This document shows positions 1,779 through 20,000 of a stretch of DNA of 20,000 nt, one piece after another; position 1 is the first letter of the stretch, and each line of letters opens with the position of its first letter. Both the position numbers and the translations under genes were made by a program. The notes under the pieces are model-generated. The model did no database searches. It was given only the letters and a program-made list of their open reading frames with translations, and was not told where the DNA came from. The DNA is from Psammoneis japonica (Eukaryota), in contig QPGO01000300.1 in assembly GCA_008632985.1 (NCBI GenBank), positions 48,525 through 68,524 on the forward strand, in the 5' to 3' direction.

Positions 1779-3838
1779 GCAAATTGGAAATGTAGGACGA
1801 CCAGGACTGTGGCATTAACCCAGCATTGATTGATGACAGATGTTAAAAAACTGTGGCGATGCGTCTTGGTTGGTTGAAAAGAGTTGACCAGTTCATTGTG
1901 ATCATCCCTTTAAATTGTAAAACATTGTTGCATGATGTGAAAATTGACAATGATGTTGATCATCAGCAGTTGTGGTGAACAAAGGCACACGCTGATTGGG
2001 AAAAGAGGGGGATGTTTGCATGGTTGAGGTTTGTTCTTACAGACAAAAAGATGTCTCTGTGGTGAAAAAAGATTGACCATCATAGATCAATTTTTTTTGC
2101 CAGCTGCACAACTGATGAGGTTTAAAACCACAAAAATGTTGTCTGTCAAAGAGACAAAATTCACAATGAAAAGACAAAGCCAGATCACTGTGTTGCGCCC
2201 TCTGATGTTTTTTTGGTTTTGCAAAGATGGTTTGAAAACAAAATCAGGGGAGAAGGAGACAGAGCAGGCAAAGTTGTTGACATGCTCATTTGGGGTCTCA
2301 TCTGGGCAGGCATTGGTTGTTCATTTTTTGGGAAGTTTCTTGGCTGTGGCTTGTTTGTGGTGGCAACGAGTGCTTGCTGAGTCAGGCTTGGCTTCTGACA
2401 GCAGCTCAGCATTGTCAGTTTGTTTCACACAGTCATGCAGTTGGTGGCTGGCATTTTTGCACTGGAAGCAACTGTTGCCTGAAGAGGACAGCAGCCCCCA
2501 CTTCACCACCACAACCAAGTGAAACATTCTGAACAAGCAATTTGTCAGATTTGGATTGGCAAAGGCTGCCAACAAACATTGAGTCACAGCAGAAGTGTGC
2601 CAGAGAAAATGGATTTTGTTGACATTTCACAAATTCAGCGAAAAGGTGGCTTGCAGTCAGCCAGGTTGTGTTTTCTTGCCATGCATGACTTTTGATTGCA
2701 CCCTGCTTGTTGCCACCTGCTGCAGAGGAGTGTTTCCTTTCCACTTTGTTTGTGGCATCAATCCAGTGGGGGTGGCTGCATTTGCTCACAGCAGTTGCCA
2801 TGCTGCAAAAAGCCAAGATGCAGCAATTTGGCAGCAGCCACTTGTTTGCATTCTTTGTGTTCAAACCAATTTGTTGCCAATGACAACCATGGCTCAAAGA
2901 GGAAGAACCCAGATGAGTGACAAGACAATCTGACAGCCCAGCCATCCACAAAATCCTGTCACTCTTGACCACATGGCAGATGTGTTTGACCCACTCCATG
3001 GGTGCACACCAGCGGAGATGTTTGCAGGCCATCATTGCACAAGACACCACCGTGGTTGTCCATGACTCACAAACATGCACCAAGTCAACAACTTGGCTTG
3101 TGCAGAAGTTGCAGAAAATTGCATTTTTTTGTGACTGAGGTGAGACTGCCACCAGCAGAGCTTGCTGCTGCTGTCAGCTCACCACAAGCTGGTGGAAAGC
3201 CAGAAATGAACAGAAAATGCAGAGTGGCAGCTGCTCAAAAGCAGAAAACTGTGGTTTTGCTTTCATTTGCAGAGCTTTTGAAACATTTAGAAAATCTCAG
3301 GCACCTGCTCATCCTGCACCACACAGGACATTGATCACTTGCTGCAGTGCAAACTGCTTGCCAAATCAGCACACTTGCAGCATTTTTGTCAATGAAAGCT
3401 TTGATGGACATTGGTGGAGCTGGGCTGGAATCAGCTGGACAAGAATGATTTTGCATGAACAGCAAAGTGCGTGGTGTGTTGGCTTGCACCTCAGTTTGGT
3501 TTTGCCCAAAATGGCAAGGGCAAGGGGGAGCCAACTCACCTTTTTGGGGAACACCCAGAAAATGAGGGGAATTTGTGGGAAGAGACCACTGAAATGGCTC
3601 AGGGGAGGGGAACAAAAAAGAGTGGATTGTTGGAATCCCGCATCAATGCTTGACAGACGGTTGTGCTTCATCCCAAAGACTGGCAAAGTTGTGCATGCAC
3701 CACACACTGAGGGTGACAACCATGACTGAACCGCCGACACATTGACACTAAGTGGCCCCATGCGGCAGAGCACCTTTTGGTGTGGTGCAAAAAAAATTGG
3801 CTTTTCAAGGTGCCATTGAGATGACCAAACTTTGCCAT

Positions 3839-3871
3839 GGACTATGGAGATTCGGAAAACTTGGTCGCACT
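3839..3871 (+). repeat. Left terminal inverted repeat
   Basis: Outer 14 bp and inner 10 bp are identical to the reverse complement of 5681-5712. Confidence 0.9.
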
Positions 3872-3985
3872 GTCCGTCAGTCACCAGGCATCGGAGGTCA
3901 AAATCTGCGGCGATGATGCTCTTTTCGCACCGGTACGAAGAACCGTCATTAAAAGAATAGAAAGAGATTTGTAAGAGATCACATT

Positions 3986-4197
3986 CTACTTTAACATTTG
4001 AAGCACTGGTTTAGACATAAAGCTGCACTGAAACCCCCAAGCAATCCACAAGTCAGCTGTCATTTCAAGATCCTGCCGCTGGTGGATACCACCACTCATC
4101 ATGCCACATGCCTTCATGCGTTTCACGGCTTGTTCATTCGCCGACCGATCACTGGCTACAGCTGCTGAGACAAGAACCGCTTCGCTGGTGAATTTGG
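3986..4197 (-). pseudogene. C-terminal fragment of a DDE transposase (DDE_Tnp_4 / IS4-IS5-like, ISL2EU type)
   Basis: KFTSEAVLVSAAVASDRSANEQAVKRMK fits the FTxExV.....(I/V)ASxRxxxExA(I/V)xRxK pattern (R-x3-E-x6-K, third catalytic Glu; 4112-4147), followed by ...LWIAWGFQCSFMSKPVL. The 5' part is replaced by the minisatellite at ~4197. Confidence 0.7.
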
Positions 4198-5350
4198 GCT
4201 CCAACCGCCGCCATTGCTAGCAGCTATACTCAAATACAGGATACAGCCTCCCACTGCCACCAGTGCTAGTGGGAGCCACATACAGTCTCTAACCGCCGCC
4301 AGCGCTAGCAGCTGTGCAGGATACAGCCTCCCACTGCCACCAGCGCCAGCATCATACAGGGGAACCCACCGCCACCAGATAAAAAGGATAGTAGTGCACA
4401 GGCTCCAACCGCCGCCATTGCTAGCAGCTATACAGGATGCAGCCTCCCACTGCCACCAGTGCCAGCATCATACAGGGGCACCAACCGCCACCAGATAAAA
4501 AAAGATTGTGGTGCACAGGCTCCAACCGCCGCCAGTGCTAGTGGTTATACAGGATACAGCCTCCCACTGCCACCAGTGCTGCAGCAGTAGCACACAGGCT
4601 CCTACTGCCACCAGTGCTAGCAGCAAAAGGCTCCAACCGCCATAAGGCTCCAACCGCCTCGATTGCTACCAGTGCACAGGCTCCAACCGCCGCTAGTGCT
4701 AGCAAATATACAGGATACAGGCTCACACTGCCACCAGTGCTACAGCAGTAGCACACAGGCTACTACTGCCACCAGTTCTAGCAGCAAAAGGCTCCAACTG
4801 CCTCAAGTGCCAGTAGTGTACATGATCCCACCGCCACCAGTGCTACAGCAGTAGCGATGTATACAGGCTCCCACTGCAACCACTGGCCAGTAGCAAAAAA
4901 GCTCCAACCACCACCAGTGCCAGCAGCATACAGAAGCATCCACCACCACCACATAATAAGGCTCCAACCGCCTCGATTGCTACCAGTACACAGGCTCCAA
5001 CCGCCGCTAGTGCTAGCAAATATACAGGGTGCAGGCTCACACCGCCACCAGTGCTACAGCAGCAGCACACAGGCTACTACTGCCACCAATTCTAGCAGCA
5101 AAAGGCTCCAACTGCCTCAAGTGCCAGTAGTATACATGATCCCACCGCCATCAGTGCTACAGTAGTAGCGATATACAGGCTCCCACTGCCCACTGCAACC
5201 ACTGGCTAGTGGCAAAAAAGCTCTAACCACCACCAGTGCCAGCATCATACAGGGCTGCCAACCACCACCAGATAAAAAGGACAGTAGTACACAGGCTCCA
5301 ACCGCCGCCTGTGCAAAAGCAGTAAAAGGCTCCTGCCGCCGCCAGTGCTA
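4197..5350. repeat. Degenerate minisatellite, ~33-42 bp monomer (core CAGGCTCC(A/C)AC(C/T)GCC(A/G)CCAGTGCTAGCAGC), with ~117-bp and 314-bp higher-order units
   Basis: The core recurs at about 4197, 4246, 4284, 4325, 4401, 4440, 4518, 4557, 4597, 4629, 4679, 4720, 4758, 4790, 4866 and onward. 4401 vs 4518 gives a 117-bp period; 4642-4933 vs 4956-5252 gives a 314-bp period. Confidence 0.92.
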
Positions 5351-5680
5351 CCACATTCAGCCCTGCCATAATAGTCCAGTCCATAAATCATAAATTCATG
5401 TTGAAAACAACACCTTCAGAGACGCCACCAATGAGACAGATCTCTTTCAAACTTTCCAACACACATTGTCACATGTAGAAGCATATACTGTGGTATGGCT
5501 ACGGGAACGTACTGAAAACGCCGCCGCCGCCGCATCATCATCGTGAAAGTGCCGTTTGCGTTGGCCTCACGCAAATTTGAATGAGCTGATTGGTGCAACT
5601 GCCATTTCAGTATCGCCCCACGTAACATTACGTACGTGGAATCCTACATATGTTTGGTAAACGCATGGAAGGACAGGCCG

Positions 5681-5712
5681 AGTGCGACCATTTTTTCAAA
5701 TCTCCATAGTCC
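5681..5712 (-). repeat. Right terminal inverted repeat
   Basis: AGTGCGACCATTTTTTCAAATCTCCATAGTCC, the reverse complement of the left TIR with a variable A-rich middle. Confidence 0.9.
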
Positions 5713-6013
5713 ATTGTTTTCACCGTGTGGGTCGCCTTGCCAAAAAAAGCTCAATTTGCAGTGCTGTTTTGCAGTGTGGCTTTGTGAATGTTGACAAACA
5801 CAACTGCAAAAAGCGCGCTTTGAATGAAGCATTTTGGCAAAATGGCACATCACATGATTTTGTCATGTGCTTTGTCACTGAATTCTGAAAAATGTGTGTG
5901 AAAAACACCCACATCATTTGACAATGTGCAAAATTTTTTGACCGCATCGAAAGGTGAGGAAAGAACAATCTTTGCCATCAAATCATCCATGTTGACATTG
6001 CTCATGTCTGGCT

Positions 6014-6435
6014 CTTTTTTTGCCTTGGCCTTTGCTCTAGATCCCTTTTGGTTTGCACTTGTCACCACACAACACAAGAGGGAAAACATGATCCACTGCA
6101 TTCTGCAAATGAGACAGGTCAAAGGAAAGCACAAAAAATGATCCACTGCACTCTGCATGTGAGACAGGTCAAAGGAGAGAACAAACATCATCACTCAATC
6201 AGCCACATTTTGTTGGCCATGTGAAGCTCTGCTTTTGCCTTGGCCTTCACTCCAGGTGCCTTGTGGCTTGCATTTGTGGCTGCAAAACACCAGAGTGATG
6301 CCAAATGATCCACTTCATTTTGCACATGAGATGCATCAATTGGAAGAACAAGAATGAGCAATCAATCCACCATGATTTTGTTGGCAATGCATCTTTCTGC
6401 TTTTGCCTTGGACTTTGCTGTGGATGCCACATGGC
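6014..6435. repeat. Degenerate tandem duplications (50-bp pair nested in three ~170-215 bp units); probably duplicated exon+intron units of a minus-strand relic
   Basis: ATGATCCACTGCA.TCTGCA..TGAGACAGGTCAAAGGA at 6088 and 6138, with a diverged copy at 6305. TTTTGCCTTGG(C/A)CTT at ~6017, ~6233 and ~6401. The minus strand reads repeated ..KAKAK(A/K)E.. peptides separated by pyrimidine-rich, TCTCAC-containing intron-like DNA. Confidence 0.65.
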
Positions 6436-6949
6436 TTGCATTTGTGATCACATGACAAAGAACAAGTGCAATGATCTGTCAATGCACCAGCTTTCTGATC
6501 AACATCATTCGCTGCACTTCTGTTTCATTTTGTCTTTTGCACTGCAGGTTGCAATGTTGTTCCCAACATTGACTGGTGTCATTGTTGTTTTGACAAAAGC
6601 CGTGTCATGAATGGGGCGCGAATGCACCATGGTGTGTTGCCCATTTTTGTTCTTCCAGCCGGTCGACCGTTGATTTGCACCTTCATCTGCTGTGTGGTTC
6701 CACACGTGTGCCGGCATGTAGAATGTGCAGAAATGTGCAAGAGAGGAAGCACAGGAATTGCCAATGTGTCATTTTTCATCCATGCATCGAGCGCACATGT
6801 GACAAAGCATCATCTGTGCTTTTTCTCCAGGAGCTCATGCTTCCCATGAAAAAACACGGCAAAAAGTGGTGTTTCCGGGGAATTTCAGGGAGCCCCGCTG
6901 CAAAACCAAACCAAGGTTTGCTCTGACACAGAAGGGAGTGTTCATTGTT

Positions 6950-8363
6950 TGTGACAGCTGCTGTCACATCGGAGACATCCATTTTTGCATTTGGCGGGCA
7001 AAGGATTCTTCATGATCAGCAGTGGCAAGGGCAACCTTTGGCAGAGCACTGGCCAATGCTCTCTGGCATCTCTGGCAGTTGCCTGCAATGTCAGCTTGAA
7101 AACCTCTTTGCCCTGATTCCTTTCAACAGGCAGAAGATGACAAGACAGCCATCAGTGCCCAGATCATGCATGGTGTCTGCAACCAGATGCAGCCATGTTT
7201 TCCCACTTGATTCAACCAAATTGTTGCAAGCCATCTCACAAAGAGTGACAAAACACAGCAAACAAGACTTCACGGAAAGGTGCGGAATTTGCACACAACT
7301 CCGTGGCCAAAAGAGGGAGTCACAAAACATGATGATCACGTGACAACAAGAAAATTTGAGTTCACACTCTGAATTCACATTGCAACGTACGTTCTCATTC
7401 CCTGTCACTTTGCGGAGTGAGCATGTTCCGATGCCTCAATCCATGCTCCACAAAAGGCATTTTTTCATTGCACTCCGATTGCCAACCCATTTCCTGCACT
7501 CCGTTAAACACATTCCACACAAGGAACGGAGTCGACATTTGATGCAACATGGAATGCACTGTGCCACTGCCAAAAGGGGAAAATGGAATGCTGTGTGGAA
7601 CATGTCGAGCATGTGGCAAATGCAATGCTGTCGGAACAGTGTGGCACCTGTGGTCCATCTGCTGCAACAGCCAGCTCTAGAGAGAGCAGAGTTGTCCTGT
7701 GCCTCGGCGAGCCTCTGAGTCATCCTTTGCTTGCTGCACTCACCAAATCACAAGACTTCATTGAAAAGCAACAATCCAATCTTATGACACACGAAGATGA
7801 CCTCGTGTGTGCCGAGTTCTCATTGCTTGGTGCTGGGCGCATGTTGACATTCACTCTTCATTCTTGTCCACCAAGTCTTGACAGAGTGTGCCGGGGACCA
7901 GCAGTGGCTCGGGCATTTCTGCACTTCTGAAGACAAGCTTGCAAGTCTGAGAGAAAAACAATGGCAGAAGAATGAGATGATGTGAGCAAAGAACATGAAA
8001 ATGCATGGCGACACACTGCACAGAACATCCCCAGAAATCTCGGCACTCACCCTCAAACATGATTCTGAAAAATGACACGACGAATTCGACAATGGCACTT
8101 CTCAAGCTGCTGGCATCAATGAACAGAGTTTGCTGCAATGGAGTGCCTCACACTGCCACAACGTTGCAGCCACACTCGGTGCTCATGAAATGAAGAGGCT
8201 CTCTGTGACAAAATGAAAATGAAAAGAACAGTGAGTGGTTCAGAAAATTTGAATGAAAATTGAAGCGTTCAGCTGATGTCCTCAAACATGCCATCAAGCA
8301 AGAGTGGATTGGTGCCCCCTCCACCTCCTCTTGATGCTGGTTTTCCTCAGCATTGTCATTCAT
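6950..8363 (-). pseudogene. Relic of an unknown intron-containing gene (3' end uncertain)
   Basis: ATG at 8363 (MNDNAEENQHQEEVEG). Intron-like 8291-8203 (GCATGT...CTCAC...TTTTGTCACAG) and 8050-7947 (GTGAGT...CTCAC...TTTTCTCTCAG). Frames are broken by TGA stops and no domain is recognised. Confidence 0.45.
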
Positions 8364-8835
8364 TGATGCACTCAACTTGTGCAAGATTTTTGAGAAGTGG
8401 AAGTGCAGAGAGGAAAAAGACGCCAATGCAAAAACTTGCTCCAGCATCAATTTGCATGCACGCTGCCAATTCCAAAAAATGCATGGAATTTCATGACAGT
8501 TTTCTCCACACTTTCAAGCAAAGAGTCCACATTTCTTAATGTCAAATGCATCCACATGGTGCATGAGAGATGATCCACACATGTTTGTTGCTGAACAGCT
8601 CTGCTGCGGAGCTCACACACAGAATTCTGTGGACCAATGTCCAATCCAGGACCAGCCCTGGGTGAAATGACATTTGCCCATGGAGAACTTTGTGTGAGTT
8701 CTTCAACTCCATGTTTCAGTCAATGAACATGCTTGTCTTTAAACTCTGAACAAACAAACAATTTTGCAGTGTGGTTGTGCCTCCAAATGCTTCAAGCTGC
8801 ACCTGCCCCATGCAATTTTCAAGACATTGAAAAAG

Positions 8836-10130
8836 TCAAAAGTTGTTGAACAGATTGCTTGTCAATTGAACTGCCCAGCAGCACAAAATGTTGCCAAAGT
8901 CAGGTGGAGACATGCTTGTGCAACATGCGATGTGATCCAAACAACTGTCAGTGTTGCAGCTCAGCAGCGCAAGGTCCCACCCAGAGCTGAAGCACATTTG
9001 AGAGAGTGCTGCATCTCCACTTTGTGGTTGACACATGAGCTGCTCCCCGCCAACAAGATTGCACATCAATTTGATTTGGTGCATCCTTGCCTGTTGCATT
9101 GCTGGGTGCAATGAAGGAGCAGATCAAAGGATGCTCCAGCAAAGATGATGAGCTGCCAGCAAAACTTTGCCAAAATGTTTGAACATTGCATCTGCATGAG
9201 TCTGGTCTCACACATTTGACACAAGGCAGAGCACATGTTCCTCTTGTTCCACCTTGCCCTCATTGACATTTGTCCTCTCATTGCAGCGCACCTGGCAGAT
9301 CTCATCTGCAAATCACCCCCTTGATCACAGACTTGTGACAACAGATTCAGCCATGGGTGTTTTCAACTGACAAGACAAAACAGGTCACAGGATGTTCCTG
9401 CGTGTTCAAAAAATCTTTCAATGCTCCCCTTGCTCTGATGGAGAGCAGTGTGCACAGTCATGGAATGGTGCATGTGTCCCACAGCACAGAAAGACAATCA
9501 TCAGTTGCCCTGGGGGAAGGTGAGAAGATGCTGAGATCCATCCAACTTGGAACAAACTCATCTCAACAACAGGATTCTTAGAAAAGGCATGAACAACCCC
9601 TTCTTCAACAGTGAGGGGGCAGGCATCACTGGGTGTTCTTCATTGCTTGAGTCGCTGGGCATGATGTGGTCAATGATGTTGGGAAGTGGGTTTTTCCACT
9701 GCCCTTTTGAGAGCAAAGCAAATGATGATGCCACCTCCTTGCCTTCACAAGCACCTTTGACAAATGCCGCATGTTTGCCAACCTTAAAACTGTGGTGCTT
9801 GATCCCAAACAAAGGTGCTTGGCAGACAATCACAACATCTTGGTTGACAGGAAGTGAAGCAAGCAAAGGAAGTCTCAAAACAGGTGCACAGCACTGACAT
9901 GCAGGGATGCACATGAGAAAAGGAAATGCCAGCTTGAGCGAAGTGACAACATGACAACATTGATGCAATGCTGCCCCTGCATGATTTTCTCCCTTGAGGT
10001 GTGGCTCCATGGCATGATGGTGGTGCACAAAGCTGACATTCATCAAATGCTTTGTTCTTTGTGGCATGCCCAGTTGAACATTGGCCGGTGCAACAGATTT
10101 CAAAACAGACAGATTTCTGCCCTTTGGAGC
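8836..10130 (-). pseudogene. Unidentified coding relic directly downstream of, and possibly fused to, the NRPS E domain
   Basis: Protein-like frames continue from the E domain with no obvious intergenic gap: 9558..10103, then DEFVPSWMDLSIFSPSPRATDDCLSVLWDTCTIP*LCTLLSIRARGALKDFLNTQEHPVTCFVLSVE..., then 8948..9211 and 8836..9111. Interrupted by TGA stops and frameshifts. Confidence 0.4.
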
Positions 10131-13100
10131 ACAGCTTTCAAGAACTGTGCAGCAGGTCAGAACAAAACTGCCAACTCATCTTGAGATGTGATCCCATCAT
10201 GTGATGTGACACATCAAGAATGGAGTTGTCCGACTGGTTTTGTGGATCCCAATCTGATGTGGGAATGCTGTCCAACAAGGAAAGCATGAGGTCTGAGGAG
10301 TCTAAAGAATCCAGCGTCTTTAAGTCCATGCCATCTGATGCACTGGCCTGGGTCCACGAGTGCCCCAGACAATTGAGGGTGACCTGAGAAGCATGATGAT
10401 TGGAAAGAGATGAACATCTGCAATGCATTTGGAGCTTCTTGCAGCTTTTCCAAGGCTGCGCAGAACACATTTCCAGCATCCGCAACCCCATCAAACTAAA
10501 AGCGTGCAGAAAAGACGGACGTGAACCAACCAACAGTCCTGGCAAGGTCAAGCCCAGAGGCGATGATGCCCGATTTGCGGCCATGACCTTCAACGATGAT
10601 GCAGACATCTGTGCTTTCACCAGATGGCTCCACCAGACTCTGGGCAAGTGCCAAGACCACTGGATCTTTGACAGCAATGGTCAACAGCAGCCCTTCGATG
10701 TTTGCACATTCAACCAAAAATGATGTCCCATCCTTTCTGGGCTCAACACTTGCACGCCCATCTTGCAAAGCTCTCAAAGGCAACTTAAAGGGAGGTGCCA
10801 CTGTGTGGCACCAGTGCGCAAGCTTGTTTGACAAGGAAGATGATTTTGAGCACTTCTGCAGTGCAGATGTCCACTGTGCAAAGGAGTGTGATTTTGCCGG
10901 GAGGCTCGCTGGTCCCTGGCGTCAGTTGGGAGCACAGGCCAAATTGAGGTCATCCACAATCACTCTCCAGCTGACCTCATCAATGACAAGGTGATGAACA
11001 ACAGTCAACAGCAGGGGTGGATCAGGTGATGGCCTTCTGAATGGTGCTGCTGCTGCCATTGTTGGCCCATTCTCCAAGTCACGCAAAGATTGATCTCGTT
11101 CAATTTCGCGTTCAATTTCAATCAGCAGCCCATCAAATTTTAACATTTGAATTGTCTTCAATGTGGAATGCGAGAAATCTTGATGCAATTTCATCAGTGT
11201 GCTGGATCTGCCTGGCATGACGATTCACTGTTTCATGAGAGAAGCGCAAAGTGTCATGATGGATGATGAGTGACAGGAGTGCAGCCTGGAGAGCTGCCTC
11301 ATCAACATCATTCCAAACCAGAAACATTGTTGACTGGTTGCAGTGCAAAGGTGCTGGAAACTGCTTGCCAAAAAACCATCTGAGGATTGGGGTCAGGTGA
11401 ACCAGCCAATTTTGGCCCTTTGTTCAGGTGGTCCAAATGAAGCCCAAAAGAGGCTGCAGAAAGCAAAAAGGAAGCAAGCTTCTCCACTGTCTTAAATTCC
11501 ATCACAGAAATCACATTGAGACAGTGCTCAAGGCTCTGGGCAAGGGCAGCCAGCTGAAAGCTCAGGAGGGAGTCTCCTCCCAGCACAAAGAAACTGTCCT
11601 GCATGTCCACCCATGGAAGGTCCAGCACTTTGCAAAACATCGCTGCCAGCCTGACTTCCTCAGTCATCCTGGGTTCCAGAAAATCCTTGGCAGATCTTTG
11701 GAATGCAGTGACAGCGTTGCCACCCGGATGATCTCTGTGAACTGATTCCAGCTCATCATGCTTTCCAATGATGCTCGATTCTGTGCAAGGGTTGCACCCC
11801 GCAGGATGCTTTCAAGTTGATCAATCGCCTGCCCAACCGTTGACCAATCAAACAGGTCTGTGGCAAACTTGGCTTCAACGAGCAAGTGGTCACCAGATCC
11901 CAGACTGAACCTGATTGAAAAAAACAAACATCGCTGTCTTGGTCTCCTTCACTTCAAGCTCTGCCACTTTCAGCCCATCCAACACCAGGCCTGGAGCAAC
12001 ATTTTCATGTGTTCGTCAACAGCCAGCATTGTTTGAACAAGCAGGGTCTGTCCCCGCAATCTTGAATGAACTGGCCTTTTCACAAGATCCTCCAAGGCAA
12101 TGTCTTGATGATCAAATGTCATGACAGTTGCCCGCTTCACCTTTGCAACAAGTTCCGAAAATGTGAGATTCGCGCCAAGTTGGAATTTGATTGGCAGCAT
12201 GTTGACAAACATGCCAATGAGGGACTCTGTTTTTGGGTGAGATTGTCCTGATGACAGGACACCTGCAATGATTTCTTTTGGCCGGTGAGGTGATGGAGCA
12301 AAATGAAATGTGCAGAGAGCAAGATGGAGAAAGATGTTGTTGCATGTGTGGCTGCAGCTGCACAGAGTGCAGACACAATCCCATGGAACTGTTTCATGAA
12401 GCTCCCACCTTCACCCGAGTGGAGCACAGGTCTGAGCCTGTCAGTGGGAAGGCACAGAGGTTTGGGATTCTCCCCAAGCTCCTCCCTCCAGCAATCTGGC
12501 AGTTCTTGGCAGGCCGCACTCCACCAAAACTTTGCCTCCCAAAGGCAGAAGTTGCCAAATTGAATTGTGAGAAGTGGCAAGCGTTGATTTGCACAGGCAG
12601 CTGACAGCTCCATGCACAAAATGTCCCATGACAGACCATCAATGGCAATGTGGTGTGCAGTGATGACAAGCTGCAAGCGTTGCTCTTCAAGCCAAACAAG
12701 CAGTGCTTGGATGGGCAAAGTGTTTGAATCTTTGAGGTGGAAAGGAGCTGAAGCGATGTCTGTCATTGCTTTCTTCATGTGCAGCTGCCTGTCACCATCT
12801 TCCACATTGCACACATCAAGCTGACGCAAGAGAAACAAAAAATCATCTTGGACAACTTGAAAGGGTTCTTTTGTAGAATGCCCACAAGAAGAGCGGAGGA
12901 TCTCATGGCAACTGATGACAGTTCGGAGTGTGTTTTCAAGGCAACAATGATTCACAACATCATTTCTCAGATCAAAAACTGCAGATGCATGGCAGATCGG
13001 TGAACTGGGATCAAGCAGATGAAGGAAATGCATTTGTGCTTGTGCCAAGGAGAGAGGAAGCTGCTTTCCAACTCTTTGGCTGCATGGGCAGACCTCAATG

Positions 13101-15023
13101 TCCACGTTGTCTGTTGCTCCAGCATCCACGATGCGTGACAAAACATCACTTAGAGTGGGTTCTGCAAAAAACTCAGTGAACCGGACCCGTGTCACAAATT
13201 CTTGTCTCACTTTACCGAGGAGCCTCACGGCTGAAAGAGATTGACCTCCAAGGCTGAAAAAGTCAGCATCCTGCCCAACATCTTGCGGCTCGAGATCCAG
13301 CACATCAGCAAAAATCTGTGGCAGTTTCTTGCACAGCGGTGACTGATGATTCTTTGGATCATGAGACCCGACCGTCGAAGCCCAGGAGTGATCTGGGAGG
13401 CGAGATCTGTCCGTTTTGCCAGAGGAGTCGACCCGGCATGCAGCAATCTTGACAAATGCAGCAGGGACCATGTGATCTGGAAGAGAAGATGCCAGATGGG
13501 ATTGCAGACTGCATGCATCTGGCCTTGTGCCCATTCTCTCTGGGACCAACTGTGCACAAAGAAATGGAATGCCTTCCTTTTGGTGGCAAAGAGCGACAGC
13601 ACAAGCTCAAACATCCCTCCTTTTGAGCAACTTTGTTTCAATTTCACTAAGCTCAATCCGAAACCCTTGCAGTTTCACCTGTGTGTCCAGCCTTCTGAGA
13701 TGCTCAATGCTGCCATTGGGAAGCCAGCGGCAGCGGTCTCCGGTCTTGCAGATGACTGGCATTTCGGCTGAAACAGAGAATCTGTTTTTGACGAATTTCT
13801 CTGCCGCAAGGTCTGGCAAGTTGAGATGCCCACGGGCCACCTGTGGGCCCGCTGCACAGAGCTTGCCCGGAACACTGGGTTTCACAGGTTCACCATCAGA
13901 ATCAAGGATGTAAAGCTTTGTGCTGCCAGGATTCGAAAACCCAATTGACTTTGGATGTTTCATGTCAGGAGTGCATTGGATGGATGTCACAGTGACCGTT
14001 GCTTTGGCAGGTCCACATTGATTGTTGATGAGACAGCAAGGTGCTGTGCCCATTCTCTGATCAACAGGGGAGGGACAGCCTCACCACCAATGGCAGCCAT
14101 GTGCAAATTGGGAACCTCCTGAGGTGACACTGTGCCAAGCTGTGTTGGAGTGCACCCAAGGGTTGTGACATTGCATGTGCAAATAAACTTGCCAAAGCCT
14201 TCAAGGGCCGTCCACTTGTCACAAAGAACCGCCATCCCACCAAATGCCCACACCATCCAAATGTCAAAAACAGATGAATCAAAGGTCAGCTGCCATGATT
14301 TGGATGACCCGCTTGTTGGGCCCAGGGTCAAGGACAGCCCGCATCAAATCAATGCAATGGGCCACAGCCAAGTTTGGAACCACAAAACCCTTGGGCTTGC
14401 TGGCAGTGCCCGATGTAAAAATCACACAAGCAAGTTTGTTCCCTGTGACCATTTCCTCTGTCTCTGCTGTTGGTGAATCATGGTGGAGGATGAGATCATT
14501 GTTGTTGACCACACACAGCGGCTCAATGCCCAGCTTGGAAAACTGCTTGGAACAGGCCTTGCTGCACATGACCAATGATGGCAAAATGTCTTCCAGCACG
14601 GTTTGGATGCGAGCATTGGGAAGTCGCAAGCCAAGAGGGACGCAGGCCCCACTGGCTTTTAGAACGGCCAGTGCAGGTGCCAAACAGCCAATTGTCCATT
14701 CAGCAGCCAAGCTGACGAGAGAGGATTCGGGTCCGATGCCGCAATGCAATTGCAGCCTGGCAGCCAACAAGTCAGCAAGCACAATCAAGTTTTCTGCAGG
14801 AGAGCTTCTGCTTTCCCGTTGCATCTTCAAGGGCTGCATTGTCGGGCACTTGTCTTGCTGTCCGTGCAAAGATCTCTCTGAGGGTGGCAAGACCACGATG
14901 CGGACGAATCTCTCTGCCGAGCTCCAACACATTCACACCTTCTTCCTTGTCATGCAGTGGCAGTGGTGCCATCTCTGCACTGTGCCAAAGCAGCTTTTGT
15001 GCATGCGTTGCAGCATCTTCCAT
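10130..15023 (-). pseudogene. Non-ribosomal peptide synthetase pseudogene, domain order A-T-C-T-E, multiple frameshifts and stops
   Basis: A domain: KLSCRKLD, LKASGACVPL, LACVIFTSGTASKPKG (14387-14428), TFDSSV, CGPAKAT, GKLCAAGPQVARGHLN, CKTGD (13736-13750), DTQVKLQGFRIELSEIE, LPDHMVP, SGKTDR. T1: FFSLGGQSL (GGQSL 13235-13249). C: PLSLAQ, HEILRS, HHIAIDG (12635-12655), LPTDRLRP, GMFVNMLPI. T2: FFVLGGDSL (GGDSL 11566-11580). E: LTPILRWFF, HCNQS, HHLVIDEVSW (10967-10996), EGHGRK (10574-10591), RTVGWFTS (10517-10540), TLNCLGH (10360-10380). Confidence 0.95.
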
Positions 15024-15036
15024 CAAAGGACGATGG

Positions 15037-15042
15037 TGTGTG

Positions 15043-15084
<42 letters not shown>
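15037..15084. repeat. Compound microsatellite (TG)3CA(TG)7(AG)13
   Basis: Read directly from the sequence; lies just upstream of the first NRPS ATG (15023, minus strand). Confidence 0.95.
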
Positions 15085-15092
<8 letters not shown>

Positions 15093-15886
15093 ACAAAGAT
15101 GGTTTGGCTTGAGAGAAGGAGCTGCAGGTTGTGATGAGAGGTGGGTTGGCCATCGGCCATCCCAACAACATCACACTGTGCACTGCAAGTGACGTTGGTG
15201 TTTGCAACATTCATTTTTATGTCCATCATGGTGCACCACACAAAAACACACCAACGCCACATGCCGCTTGCAATGTCAAAACAAACAATGTCAAAGACAT
15301 TGTCAGGAACTGACAACAACTGTTTCAGGAAACACTTGTCAACATCAACAATGCAAAGCCAACTGGGAATGCTCTGACTCTTTTTGCTGAACATTGGAGG
15401 TGAGTTGAAGCTGACAAGAGTGGGAAAGATCTGGGGAAGTCAGCTGGTTGTCAACCTCACTTTTGTTCTGCTGGCTCTCATGTTTCTTCAGAGTGGCAAG
15501 GTCATTTGCAATGTTGAGCATTGTGACAAATTGGCGATGACACATGCAACTGCACATTGCTCCAAATGTTTTGTTTCAGTTTTGAGACCAAGAGGGCAAC
15601 AAGAACAAACAAGAGCTGGTGTGTCCCCAAGATGCCACGGTGGCAAGTCTGCCTCTTCTCATTTGAAGTGAGTTTGTTTTTTCCTCCTTGCCCCAGCTTT
15701 CAACAATCTTGCCAACCTTTGCATTGTTTGTTTGTTCTCTCACATTCTCTGATGCTTTAGTTTGCTCTCTGTGTGAATCCAACTCTTCGTGTCCAACTGC
15801 ACACTTGCTGCGACATGTGTTGCTGCAGAATGAATGGTCAAGACCATCCTTTTAACATCAAGAGGTGGAGGCAACAACACTTGACT

Positions 15887-17871
15887 TTAAGGATTCACTT
15901 GGATCCCCCATTTGAAGGAATGAGTGGAGCCAAGCAAGGTTGATTTGCCTTTGACAAATTCTGGAGAAATGTGTGCCTGCAGCTGTTTGAGACAATGTGT
16001 CTTCTTCAATCTCTTCCTGTGGCTAAATTGATTTTGACATGCACTCAATTGCAGCATTGTCAACAAGTCTGCAAAATCAAATTGACTGCAGAAGCATTGT
16101 CTCTTTTCCATCATGGTTTGTTGGCTTCTCTCATGCTTCAGCGCCAGGCGCACACTGCAAAAAGATGCACTTCCACAGTCTCTGCAAGTGTGCTCTCTGT
16201 TCTGAGCAAACCCACAAAGCTCAAGTCCCCCCCCCCCAACAAAAGGCAAGTTTCCTTCACTTGTTTGGTGCCAGTTGTGACCAACACAGTCCTTTCATCT
16301 TGCAGCCAACATCGTGGTCCTTTCATCTTTGGTGGCTGGCCAGTCTAGAGTGCAGCCGCTGCAGGGCTGTTTTTGGTTGGCCTGCTGCAGGAAACTGCTT
16401 GGCTGCTTGTCTCTTGCAATGTGTGGGTGGCTCATTTCCTTTTGCAATCATTTTTCCATGCAGAGCTGACAGAAGTTCTGAGCAAGCCCATGAAAGCTCA
16501 AGTTGGTGCAACAAATCTGGCACACATTGTGCAACAAAACAAAAGAGAAATCCTCTTTGTTTCCTTTGAGCCTTGTTCAGCAAGCCAACAAGGGGGGATC
16601 AGCGAGCAATGTGCACATCCTGTGTGAGCTTGAGAGCAGAATTTTGGGTCATGCTGAGCTGCTCTTGTGGCCCTGGAGTTCCTCCCAGACAAAAAGAAAG
16701 TTTCCTGCACTTGTTTGGCGCCAGTTGTGACCAACACATTCCTTTCATGTTGCAGCCAACATCATGGTCCTTTCATCTTCAGAGGCTGTCCAGTCCAGAG
16801 TGCAGCCACTGCAGTGCTTCTTCAAGCAGCTTGCCACAGGAAACTGCTTGGCTTCTTGTCTCTTGTGTTGCAGGTGGCTTTTTTTCCTTTTGCAATCATT
16901 GTTTCATGCAGAGATGACAGAAATGTCCATTTGACTGCAGCGGCACAGCTGCGTGATCTGACCCAATGCAGGTGTCATGAGAGGATGACAGCCCACCATG
17001 ATGGAGGCTGATGGAGCTGTGCCCTGCATCTGGTCTTGCCAGCACAGCGCCACAAACAAACACAACTCCTGTGACACCACACCACTGGAAAATGCACTCT
17101 TGATTGCTTGTCTCTTGTGTTGCAGGTGGATCCTTTCCTTTTGCAGCCATTCACACAGATCTGGCTGCTGAGCCACACCAAGCAGCCTTGCTGCCCCTCC
17201 GCTTGCAAGCACAATGCCAACAACAGAACCTGGCACCTCATCACTGAGAGTCAACCTTTGATCTGTCAAGCACAAACTCAAAACAAAGTGCACAAGCTTG
17301 TGAGAGCTGAGAGCCTGAGTTTTGCAGCAAAGCCACATGAAGGGCTTTTGTTTGCCCTGCTTGTTTGGGTTTTCTCTCCTGCTGCTTTTCTTTTCATTGG
17401 CACCATCATCAGAGAGAAACACAGCATGCTGCTCATTGTCAATTTTGGTGGGAAATGTTTGGCAGCAAACAGAACATTGGCTGTTGCTGCGCAAATTGTG
17501 AAAATCTGGAGTCCAAGCAGCACAACCACAAGAAGAAGCTTCTGTCCATTTTTGGGTTTTCTCTCACCTCTCTTGCCATTGACACACTTGTCACAGAATG
17601 AATGTGGATGTCACACATCAACATTTTTTACAGGAAAAGGTTTGGTGACAAAATTGGTCATCGGTTGTTGCCACATCATGGATGGTTTGCAGTTTCTGTC
17701 TGTGTTGTTGCAGCAGCATGAGAAGCAAAAAATGTCTGGCCATCACATGCACTGACACAACATGCAGTGTTCTGCTCTTCTCTCTTCAATCTTCTGCTTT
17801 TCTCCACTTTTCCCAAGCTTTTCCTCTTGTTTTTTTTTCAGAAACTTGGAGCTGATTTGGCGATTGCTCAT
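15887..17871 (-). pseudogene. Relic of an unknown gene with an internally duplicated segment
   Basis: ATG at 17871 (MSNRQISSKFLKKKQEEKLGKSGEKQKIEERRAEH), intron-like 17765-17700 (GCATGT...TTCTCAT...AACACAG), then broken protein-like frames (16904..17494, 15887..16249) containing the duplicated ALQ.LHS.L.S..R*KDHDVGC.MKG.CWSQLAPNK.RKL.FC.GG unit. Confidence 0.4.
16248..16922. repeat. Diverged direct repeat of ~225 bp (16248-16474 and 16698-16922, 450-bp spacing), with a partial third copy at ~17106-17145
   Basis: AAGTTTCCT.CACTTGTTTGG.GCCAGTTGTGACCAACACA.TCCTTTCAT.TTGCAGCCAACATC.TGGTCCTTTCATCTT...CAGGAAACTGCTTGGCT.CTTGTCTCTTG is present in both copies. Confidence 0.9.
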
Positions 17872-18081
17872 TTGGATTGTGTTGGTTTGTCTGAACAACG
17901 ACGCACAAGAAGCCAAGTGTTCCAGGTTCCAAAAAAGGCTGTCATGCTTCCAGCTCACCCCACACAAACAGATGCTCACATTGCGCCTGTTGGTCGATGT
18001 TGCTGTGCAATTGATTGTGATGCTTCATCACTGCAAAATTAAATTCATGATGTTTGTGGGGTCATGAATTGCTTGTTCACA

Positions 18082-19050
18082 TCAACATGTGCGCGCAAGC
18101 AAACAATCAAAACAATGGTCAATGTCATCATGGCTGTCCTCAACAGCCCTGGTTTCTTGACCGTCAGAAATGTTCCACAGTGAAAGTCCATTGTCCATGC
18201 TGGTGGCCAGCATGCAAGAGTCAGCAGAAAAATGAATGGAACATGCTCCTGCTGCCTTTCCTGAAATGCATGGTGTCAATGCTTGCAGCCACCAATGGCT
18301 GTCATCATGCTGCCACATCTTGACTGCATCAACAGCAGCAGTGGCAAACAATCGACCATCAGGAGAGAATGATGCTGCATGTGCACTTCCTTCTTGTGAC
18401 CTTTTGTGTGACCTTCAAGGCCGTCCTTGGGAGACTTTGCTGTGTCTCACATTGAGTGGCCATGATTGAAAGCAGTGCCGCTTTCACTCGAATCCGATCT
18501 GACACCAAGCAAGACGTGCCGTCCATCAGGGGAAGTGCAAAGGACGTCCCATCCAAAAAGGACAGCTGCTCATCTGTTTTTTCTTTCTTGGTTCTGTCCC
18601 AGATTTGAGTGTTGCCACCAACAACAGCAACAAGTCTTTTGTCATTGGGTGAGTGTGCCACTTGACTTGTTCCAGACTTTGGTGTGCACACACGCAAAAA
18701 AAATCCCCTTTTCACATGAAACACACAGTCCAAACTTGCGGCACAACTTTGAACAGTTAAAATGTGATGATCTTCAAATCTGTTGTTGCAAGTGCATGCA
18801 GAAAGGTCTTGTGCATGTGCCCATGCATTCGAAACTGAGGATGGACCAAGTTGTTGATCCCCAAATTGCTCCGCAAGATGAGAGCTCTTTTTTCCGATGA
18901 GTGATTTGTGCTGCATTTGTGTGTCGACAAACAACATCAATTGCTGTTCTTGCACAACAATTTGCTCTCGAGTGCAACATTGACAATGTTTTGTCATCTC
19001 ATTTGGGTGCAAGTTGCTCTCAACAGATTGGACAAAACATTCATTGACTG
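18082..19050 (-). pseudogene. WD40/beta-propeller repeat protein relic
   Basis: Blade-like motifs VAHSPNDKRLVAVVGGNTQIWD (~18596-18661), SFSPDGRLFATAAVDAVKMW (~18313-18372) and IHFSADSCMLATSMDNGLSLWN (~18171-18236), in different frames. 5' end uncertain. Confidence 0.7.
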
Positions 19051-20000
19051 ACAAGTTTTGGAAGATGTGAGAAGAAGTGAAGCTCAGCACATGCAATGGC
19101 GTCGACTTTGGAGTGTCAGCACAAATGACTGACACACTTGCACAAGTCAATGCTGTGGAGGAAACACACATGGAAATGGAAAAGAAATGCACCTTGGAGG
19201 CAAATTGTGAGTGAGCTGAGGCTCAATTGTTGGTGATGAACAGACTGAGTCTTCTTGTGCCGACGTGTTCCAGCCCCACAGGTGATGCACAAAACGACAA
19301 TCAATTTTGAACATGAATCATGCATCTCTTGTGTGTGCGGCATTTGCGTGTGGGACACTTGGGCAAATGTGCTTTTGCAGGTGTCCAGAGCACAAACATT
19401 TGATTGATTTTTTTGTTGGCATGCAAGTCCTCATTGGATGTGCATCATGAACTCCCTCAGTGGACTCAAAGACTGTGCACAGTGCATTGTGTGCAGAGAT
19501 TTTTCTGCAGGCAGAAATTGCACCAGAAAGCATTGTAGAAAAATCATTCATGTTGACATCAAAATGATGGCAACAATTTCACCGACAATCATTCATTGCG
19601 TGTTGCGACTTGTTTGTTGCAACAAAAAACATGGATTGCAAAAAAACAACAACATTGCAACACTGAGCCCATCCCTCATCATTGCACAAAAACAAAAACA
19701 AAAACAAAAAGTTTTTTTGTTTTTGTGACATGTGCAATGGCCTTGTTGTCAAACAAAAACAAAAACACCCCTTCCATGCATTTTTGCACCAAACCAAGCA
19801 TGTGCAGAGCCACGCGCTGACAACACTGGCTCTAGAAAGCCGCAACAAACAAAAGGGGCAAGACACGCAATGGCATGCTCGAATCCATTTTATGACAGCA
19901 ATTGTTGGTCAATCATGGCACAGGTCAATGCAGTCAACACTGTTGATTGAATGTCATCCACAGCACAGTTGACAAGGTGAAACATGGCAGCTCATGTGCA

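Follow-up and report, generated by a model that had tools for sequence, protein, structure and literature searches.

The window analysed here is a stretch of 20,000 nucleotides from the diatom Psammoneis japonica (GenBank assembly GCA_008632985.1, contig QPGO01000300.1, positions 48,525 to 68,524 of the forward strand) that forms the end of a contig, C301, of the 91-Mb assembly. Within it, an unstranded block at 9541..15060 has been almost emptied of the dinucleotide TA, of which 16 copies are left, with CpG also depleted and CA and TG enriched; per 500 bases, the observed/expected ratio (o/e) is 0.00–0.09 for TA and 0.11–0.52 for CG. Most of the block is occupied by a broken non-ribosomal peptide synthetase (NRPS) gene on the minus strand (10141..14932), with domain order A-T-C-T-C, in-frame stops and Pfam AMP-binding, PP-binding and Condensation matches in pieces of its open reading frame (ORF). 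Here, comparing the block with a sister copy of the gene, with young and old transposon copies and with two samples of the genome, we find a DNA-level process in repeat-rich domains that turns the A of 5′-TA-3′ into G at isolated sites of both strands and that follows a per-strand rule on the base 3′ of the A.

The remaining TA sites and the broken NRPS gene

The initial annotation listed the 16 sites, and on recount every coordinate and tetramer is exact, as is its tally of 15 sites containing TTA or TAA and none of the form RTAY (R, purine; Y, pyrimidine). Against a base-composition null of 0.44, 15/16 has P = 4 × 10−5, and the lack of RTAY P = 0.01. The annotation's chance expectation of roughly half was too high, normal DNA of the genome having TTA or TAA at 38.5% and 31% of its TA in two samples; against the first of these figures P falls to 6 × 10−6. 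The remaining TA-poor parts of the window show the same skew (TTA/TAA 36/50, RTAY 1/50; P = 1.6 × 10−6). The block is nevertheless a favourable example of the genome's erased DNA, standing high even within it (15/16 versus 73%, P = 0.045).

A less mutated sister copy of the NRPS gene on contig C162 matches the window at 87% over 10428–15008, and a metagenomic sequence, P0001, aligns to 10141–14797 of the window, with stops inside the aligned region. In the pairwise alignment, TA of the sister reads in the window as CA 18 times, TG 16 times, TA 6 times and otherwise 3 times, and CG of the sister as TG 90, CA 87 and CG 83 times. Six of the window's sites are TA in both copies and are true survivors (10303, 10786, 13911, 14184, 14416 and 14660, spanning 10303..14661), all containing TTA or TAA. 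Eight are not TA in the sister (10321, 10497, 11141, 11493, 12874, 13151, 13213 and 13648, spanning 10321..13649), and the other two, 9579 (TTAG) and 9785 (TTAA), at 9579..9786 and without strand, lie outside the NRPS alignment.

Codon comparison with P0001 as outgroup marks four of the eight (10497, 11141, 11493 and 13648) as apparently new in the window copy, the remaining four being unpolarisable; the list of 16 therefore mixes survivors with newly made TA. At 10497, a CAG-to-TAG change creates a stop, and at 11141, 11493 and 13648 the window differs from the sister and from the outgroup residue alike, 11141 being the least certain of the four because it adjoins an indel. Some of the 16 sites thus appear to be new TA made by C-to-T or G-to-A change, and the annotation's term 'surviving' holds for 6 of the 14 alignable sites and fails for 8. 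Survivors and new TA alike end in slow contexts.

The window gene lacks the C-terminal beta-lactamase-type part of its sister. The sister (G000:C162:16.3–22.5 kb, L003) consists of A-T-C-T-C followed by this end, a layout that it has in common with P0001 (53–56% identical), and is itself partly TA-erased and spread over three frames. A (GT)n(GA)n microsatellite expansion at window 15040–15085, directly upstream of the NRPS gene, is absent from the sister copy.

TA erasure across the genome

Our first sample comprised 26 ten-kilobase stretches, 15 picked blind by coordinate and 11 lying beside the window, the sister NRPS gene or copies of a long interspersed nuclear element (LINE), and its one-kilobase bins were classed as erased (117), intermediate (44), normal (79) or unclassed (20). 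Among 352 TA in erased bins, 73% are TTA/TAA and 2% RTAY, compared with 38.5% and 30% of 3303 TA in normal bins. Retention falls from 0.39 for TTAA through CTAA (0.25), CTAG and GTAA (0.09 each), CTAC (0.07), ATAA (0.03), ATAG (0.02), GTAC (0.01) and ATAC (0.003) to 0 for ATAT. A second sample of 34 loci gave 82/117 TTA/TAA and 4/117 RTAY in erased DNA, and 618/1978 and 641/1978 in normal DNA. Tabulated over NTAN contexts, TA-depleted DNA thus differs from normal DNA by a strong bias among the remaining TA in both samples.

Copia elements, LINEs, an element with terminal inverted repeats (TIRs) and the duplicated NRPS gene are erased, and gene-rich stretches retain a TA o/e of about 0.5–0.7. 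Among 80 Copia loci from metagenomes, none has a one-kilobase bin with TA o/e below 0.25, a result that is uninformative on the spread of the process because five of the six seed peptides contain tyrosine, which the process removes, and because assemblies favour young copies. We used these loci solely as a reference for unmutated DNA (36% TTA/TAA and 30% RTAY among 14646 TA).

Mutation spectrum in young and old transposon copies

The main Copia family includes young copies that are near-identical and have normal TA, together with older ones of down to 79% identity. We aligned 29 loci to one young copy, the starting state being fixed by six young loci; the spectrum was taken from six old copies, at seven loci, that had hardly any transversions and the rate fit from ten, and the others were left out. 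A-to-G change is found at 496/1904 (26%) of A in TA, as compared with 22/3140 (0.70%) in AA, 20/3393 (0.59%) in CA and 14/3568 (0.39%) in GA, so that TA exceeds AA 37-fold and non-TA sites are 37–66 times colder. The TA pairs of the young copy now read TA (455), TG (254), CA (229), CG (1) or TT (1); single transitions make up 483 of the 485 changes, with one transversion. CpG decay lags far behind the loss of TA, since C-to-T change affects only 58/2619 CG sites (and 2/3401 CA sites). According to the base 3′ of the A, 232/599 TAC, 160/569 TAT, 67/348 TAG and 37/388 TAA have changed.

This spectrum makes it extremely unlikely that patch synthesis by DNA polymerase (Pol) eta at WA motifs (W, A or T), as in antibody hypermutation, lies behind the erasure. 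The genome has two Pol-eta-like genes, assigned by reading of their sequences, AA has the highest rate outside TA, and the hotspots described for Pol eta include AA besides TA (PMC7884765, in the part available). What such synthesis would have to explain is the 37-fold excess of TA over AA, the single transversion in 485 changes and the lack of strand tracts. Psoralen-type or ultraviolet photoproducts at TA, a separate candidate, were rejected for lack of transversions.

Copies mutate independently after insertion: at the sites common to L121 and C332, changes run in the same direction at 56 of 102, and the NRPS gene has been changed on both strands (16:18). We found no same-strand runs in eight copies (z −1.58 to +1.55). 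Near-identical copies differ by 4–26 TA changes, which suggests recent action of the process. In the main Copia family, the ratio of sense to antisense A rates is 0.68 (0.56–0.80). Most other comparisons lean the same way, for the most part weakly, and some of the difference in them may come from earlier selection.

The antisense excess is what editing of a DNA strand in DNA:RNA hybrids by an ADAR/Tad1-type enzyme could give, and the genome holds two separate A_deamin (Tad1/ADAR-type) genes (L177 on C40; L178/L179 on C79), with no RNA-binding domain in the scanned pieces of either. We consider this route, or editing of element RNA before reverse transcription, very unlikely all the same. RNA editing predicts A-to-G change in the sense strand only, yet TG (254) and CA (229) arose in similar numbers, the NRPS gene is near balance and the copies changed after insertion. 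The reported ADAR optimum is moreover UAG (PMC10661471, in the part available), yet TAG is hit at about half the rate of TAY and NAG accounts for only one of 44 non-TA sites.

The Copia part that follows the reverse-transcriptase region (L103:3200–4372, on G000 C37, and sister copies) resists TA loss, with a fairly sharp boundary seen in several independent copies (for example, 1/16 and 0/16 TA changed in L118–L120). CpG density fails to explain this resistance. In these copies, erasure extends through the reverse-transcriptase region and stops there, which suggests targeting by element sequence or chromatin, not by insertion site.

The neighbour-base rule

To obtain rates, we modelled each TA as two competing adenines, one per strand, with 40 site bootstraps. 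Relative to TAT (set to 1), the fitted rates are 1.16 (0.77–1.51) for TAC, 0.44 (0.29–0.58) for TAG and 0.19 (0.13–0.26) for TAA; for the base 5′ of the T, they are 1.54 (A), 1.38 (C), 0.91 (G) and 1 (T). On each strand, the rate thus depends on the base that follows the A (TAC ~ TAT > TAG > TAA), with a 5′ T nearly obligatory and a weaker effect of the base before that T (A > C > G, T). With one target A on each strand of a TA, the slowest site is TTAA, followed by CTAA/TTAG, and RTAY is lost fastest: a TAA reduces the rate of its own strand about fivefold, and TTAA alone combines two slow strands. A site with a single TAA strand is still lost through the opposite strand, and in heavily hit segments 30/49 TTAA were kept, compared with 29/125 ATAA, 24/124 GTAA and 20/424 RTAY. 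The annotation's statement that TTA/TAA is protected is therefore correct in that these contexts are slower, and wrong in that slowing is not protection.

The Copia fit predicts the ranks of genome retention across the ten NTAN classes (Spearman 0.93). For 16 sites at 6% retention, the prediction is 85% TTA/TAA and 5.0 TTAA, as compared with 15/16 and 5 observed, and the 16 sites are remnants, or later arrivals that lingered, at about 94% erasure. When the main Copia family is pooled with another Copia pair, three copies of the LINE and the TIR element of window 3837–5714, directions of change come to TAA:TAT 39:93, TAA:TAC 44:130, TAG:TAT 44:94 and TAC:TAG 226:87, in agreement with the rule. 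Two small exceptions are CTAA of family 2, running 4:0 in the opposite direction, and ATAA of LINEs, at 11:11. The fast RTAY and slow TTAA/YTAR contexts that the annotation had proposed from the block alone thus recur in two genome samples and in young-to-old comparisons of four repeat families; its interpretation is partly supported, and largely right once restated per strand. Even the rare A-to-G changes outside TA have a 3′ pyrimidine at 37 of 44 sites. In the main Copia family, we detected no effect of distance to CpG, CpG density, local GC content, TACG or hairpin stems, and the base two after the A had none in direction-only fits.

An independent run and possible artefacts

A public sequencing run (X1), of unrecorded library type and perhaps related to the source of the window, was examined as contigs covering 9541–15060, of which four pieces of 550–860 bases are near-identical to the window, with 3, 7, 5 and 8 differences. 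In the 21 differences checked, among 41 listed of 586, 19 have an aligned base in the sister copy and all 19 agree with it; 11 give back a CG and none a TA, and at 13648, where X1 has C, the TA of the window is lost. The erasure is common to X1 and the window and is real, with no assembly artefact. Some frameshifts in the assembly may nevertheless be errors, because several window indels are absent from X1.

These missing indels, and the new TA at no fewer than four of the 16 sites, are what favours the view that there is no mutator rule and that the pattern reflects base calling at modified bases, TTAA/TA target-site duplications, new TA or composition. The near-identity of X1, in which no checked difference gives back a TA, speaks against it, as do polarised counts that rest on TA present in young copies and within coding DNA, and the NCGN retention of the second sample, which spans just 0.29–0.69 as against 0–0.39 for NTAN. 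For the rule itself, the artefact explanation is refuted by the Copia spectrum, the context retention and the X1 match, which leaves it next to no probability. Target-site duplications as the source of TTAA were also considered singly and rejected, as TTAA stays inside coding DNA (30/49 kept) and the site at 10786 is common to the sister copy.

Candidate enzymes and mechanism

We propose that adenine is deaminated to hypoxanthine, which would be read as G at replication, and that the actor would be a DNA adenine deaminase of the TadA fold recruited to silenced chromatin, where it may protect the genome from repeats and foreign DNA. We put the probability of adenine deamination by a TadA-fold enzyme as the explanation at roughly 0.55. 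Its main support is the order of contexts, TAC and TAT above TAG above TAA, which matches the TAY preference of TadA-derived base editors (ABE7.10 and relatives), whose activity is reported to be highest there (PMC10879117, in the part available). The fingerprint is unlike those of ADAR (UAG), amphioxus ADAT2 (GAA) and Pol eta (WA). The fingerprint that the annotation had offered for naming an enzyme thus argues against these three, agrees with TadA-derived editors among the published contexts compared and identifies no enzyme.

Several observations weigh against TadA-type deamination. The match to TadA is incomplete, with far stricter dependence on TA; in one Copia family (157 sites), neither TACG (0.83) nor location in a hairpin loop (0.81) raised the rate. 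Engineered TadA editors favour CAT, GAC and GAT too (PMC10879117), and here non-TA contexts are 37–66 times colder. The natural DNA-editing ADAT2 of amphioxus prefers GAA (PMC10354150, in the part available), which is a cold context in Copia (4/917). A single-strand deaminase working on long bubbles would leave same-strand runs, and the lack of such runs counts against it. Double-stranded sequence, moreover, cannot separate A-to-G from T-to-C. Profile searches with PF00383 and PF14437 recovered, as lower bounds, only housekeeping-type deaminases and no unusual one, and the bacterial-type TadA has Asp at the by-eye equivalent of E. coli D108, the RNA-only state (for the role of D108N in TadA, see PMC10354150).

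The deaminases recovered are this bacterial-type TadA (on C38), one ADAT2 (on C26) and other nucleotide-level deaminases, with no expanded TadA-like family among the matches to the profiles searched. The diatom ADAT2 carries the matching Asn motif CRNDRFGG (equivalence to amphioxus ADAT2 judged by eye), and the named relatives of its gene include two diatoms, Skeletonema potamos and Thalassiosira exigua. Two further genes were seen during these searches. A dCMP-deaminase-like gene with two tandem deaminase domains is present on two contigs (L133/L136 on C41; L134/L139 on C317), and L137 (G000:C79:87006–90176), a candidate enzyme, is a 491-residue frame in which a zinc deaminase domain is linked to an apparent 2-oxoglutarate/iron oxygenase domain, the latter assigned from its motifs.

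The genome also encodes five Y-family polymerases: Pol-iota-like, REV1-like, kappa-like and the two eta-like (on C18 and C19). The first of these (L182, G000:C22:251128–254793) is an open frame whose best solved relatives are Pol iota (E = 2 × 10−26, versus 2 × 10−14 for kappa), and it may be catalytically equivalent. Human Pol iota inserts G opposite T 3–10 times more efficiently than A and has deoxyribose-phosphate (dRP) lyase activity (PMC3979402, in the part available). Together, the gene and this bias make one-base repair synthesis a live, if unlikely, rival: a TA-specific glycosylase or nick would remove the A, the polymerase would insert G opposite template T, and the flank rule would belong to the gap-making enzyme or to the polymerase. 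Such synthesis would account for isolated transitions on both strands without runs. It presupposes a TA-specific first step, however, the rate has no link to distance from CpG, where repair in methylated DNA would begin, and we found no published table of Pol iota contexts with which the rule could be compared.

Because the sequence fits a change of A and a change of T alike, the modified base could instead be T. Oxidised T mispairs with G, so that a 5-hydroxymethyl- or 5-formyluracil-type thymine at RTA would give T-to-C; read from the T, the rule becomes GTA, ATA > CTA > TTA. We regard this as improbable, an exon-wise search of the genome, itself weak, having found no candidate of the TET/JBP family.

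Our broader proposal, which we hold tentatively and at somewhat less than even odds, is that diatoms have a dedicated DNA A-to-G mutator targeted to chromatin, in effect an adenine base editor of natural origin that can be recognized by its T-A-Y fingerprint. It would provide an inverse of repeat-induced point mutation (RIP) as defence against transposons and duplicated genes, would be common in kind to Rhizaria and would rely on an enzyme other than ADAT2, ADAR or Pol eta.

Relation to known systems

The nearest counterpart is TpA hypermutation of integrated viral DNA in the chlorarachniophyte Bigelowiella natans (Mettrop et al., bioRxiv 10.64898/2026.01.13.699255, a 2026 preprint). De novo A:T-to-G:C changes at TpA only are described there from mutation-accumulation lines, some of which mutate at an ongoing rate about 1000-fold above that of the genome at large, and A deamination is proposed; the two viral regions account for 231 de novo mutations. 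Both systems show A:T-to-G:C transitions confined to TpA, on both strands and in chosen regions of foreign or repeated DNA, and the three defining features of the B. natans case are found here (transitions 483/485; TA 26% versus 0.4–0.7%; confinement to repeated regions). Apart from lineage, they differ in extent: TpA is mildly reduced (rho 0.45) in two viral inserts of B. natans, whereas here erasure is nearly complete in several classes of transposon and in a duplicated NRPS gene. The preprint's main text, searched whole, has no flank analysis and does not mention diatoms, although its supplement may hold flanks. We found no report of diatom TpA hypermutation or of a flank rule in the literature searched, which mostly excluded subscription journals; a Rhizoctonia paper, in the part available, merely applies RIP indices.

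In the RIP of ascomycete fungi, C changes to T at CpA, creating TpA. The two processes are alike in that transitions at one dinucleotide accumulate in inserted repeats until these are saturated, with genes spared; the difference is that TpA is here destroyed by A:T-to-G:C change, with C-to-T at only 2/3401 CA sites. RIP is also described in the B. natans preprint (bioRxiv 10.64898/2026.01.13.699255). TadA-derived editors likewise make A-to-G changes on DNA, best at TAY, but are engineered and Cas9-guided and accept CAT, GAC and GAT, in contrast to the almost TA-only process here (PMC10879117). Amphioxus ADAT2/3 is a natural tRNA-deaminase fold that makes A-to-I changes in nuclear DNA, as may be the case here, but the preferences reported for it, GAA, TCG and hairpin loops, are all unseen in the diatom (PMC10354150). 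Pol eta and Pol iota have in common with this process A-to-G change at TA, and genes of either type are present; Pol eta mutates AA as well, and TA targeting by Pol iota is not reported in the available part of PMC3979402.

To our knowledge, natural enzymes that efficiently turn A to G in DNA are barely known. The adenine base editors now in use are products of laboratory evolution that started from a tRNA enzyme. That TpA is erased from diatom repeats in the direction also reported for an unrelated alga points towards an unrecognized genome defence in algae, and the rule of about 1 : 0.45 : 0.2 for TAC, TAT : TAG : TAA is a quantitative pass/fail test for candidate enzymes and for whether the diatom and B. 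natans have one mechanism. In genomes so affected, transposon ages and protein searches are distorted: one erased ORF of 488 residues has no tyrosine and 25 cysteines.

Other features of the window and contig

A young non-autonomous element of about 1.9 kb lies at 3837..5714 (no strand assigned), with terminal inverted repeats at 3837–3859/5692–5714 and 3855–3871/5681–5697 and inner tandem repeats of 41, 116 and 314 bases; it belongs to a dispersed family with 85 matches. It retains most of its TA inside erased DNA (13 of the 94 TA of the young copy L268 have changed) and served as an internal control for the direction of change; in a sister element, L269, 78/87 TA are now TG or CA, and several sister copies are erased. 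The unstranded flanks of the block are also TA-erased. The one at 5715..9540 (9 TA in 5700–9540) gave no Pfam match in 5720–10152 when read through with X at stops; that at 15061..20000 holds 12 TA, 9 of them with TTA or TAA, and has a weak WD40-type relic near 18140–18435 on the minus strand (E = 7 × 10−5, below the Pfam cut-off).

Elsewhere on the contig, 12 kb before the window, transposon relics surround an open frame that encodes a C-5 cytosine DNA methylase (PF00145, E = 4 × 10−44; G000:C301:35234–36328, L008:6710–7804, minus strand) and is itself TA-erased. A LINE-like element (G000:C301:19261–27733, L009), with close copies on C26 and C63, is TA-erased yet largely open, having lost TA without much loss of CpG. 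A short high-copy element with inverted ends (L153–L171, matching L073:1200–1410) has many copies that are 97–99% identical.

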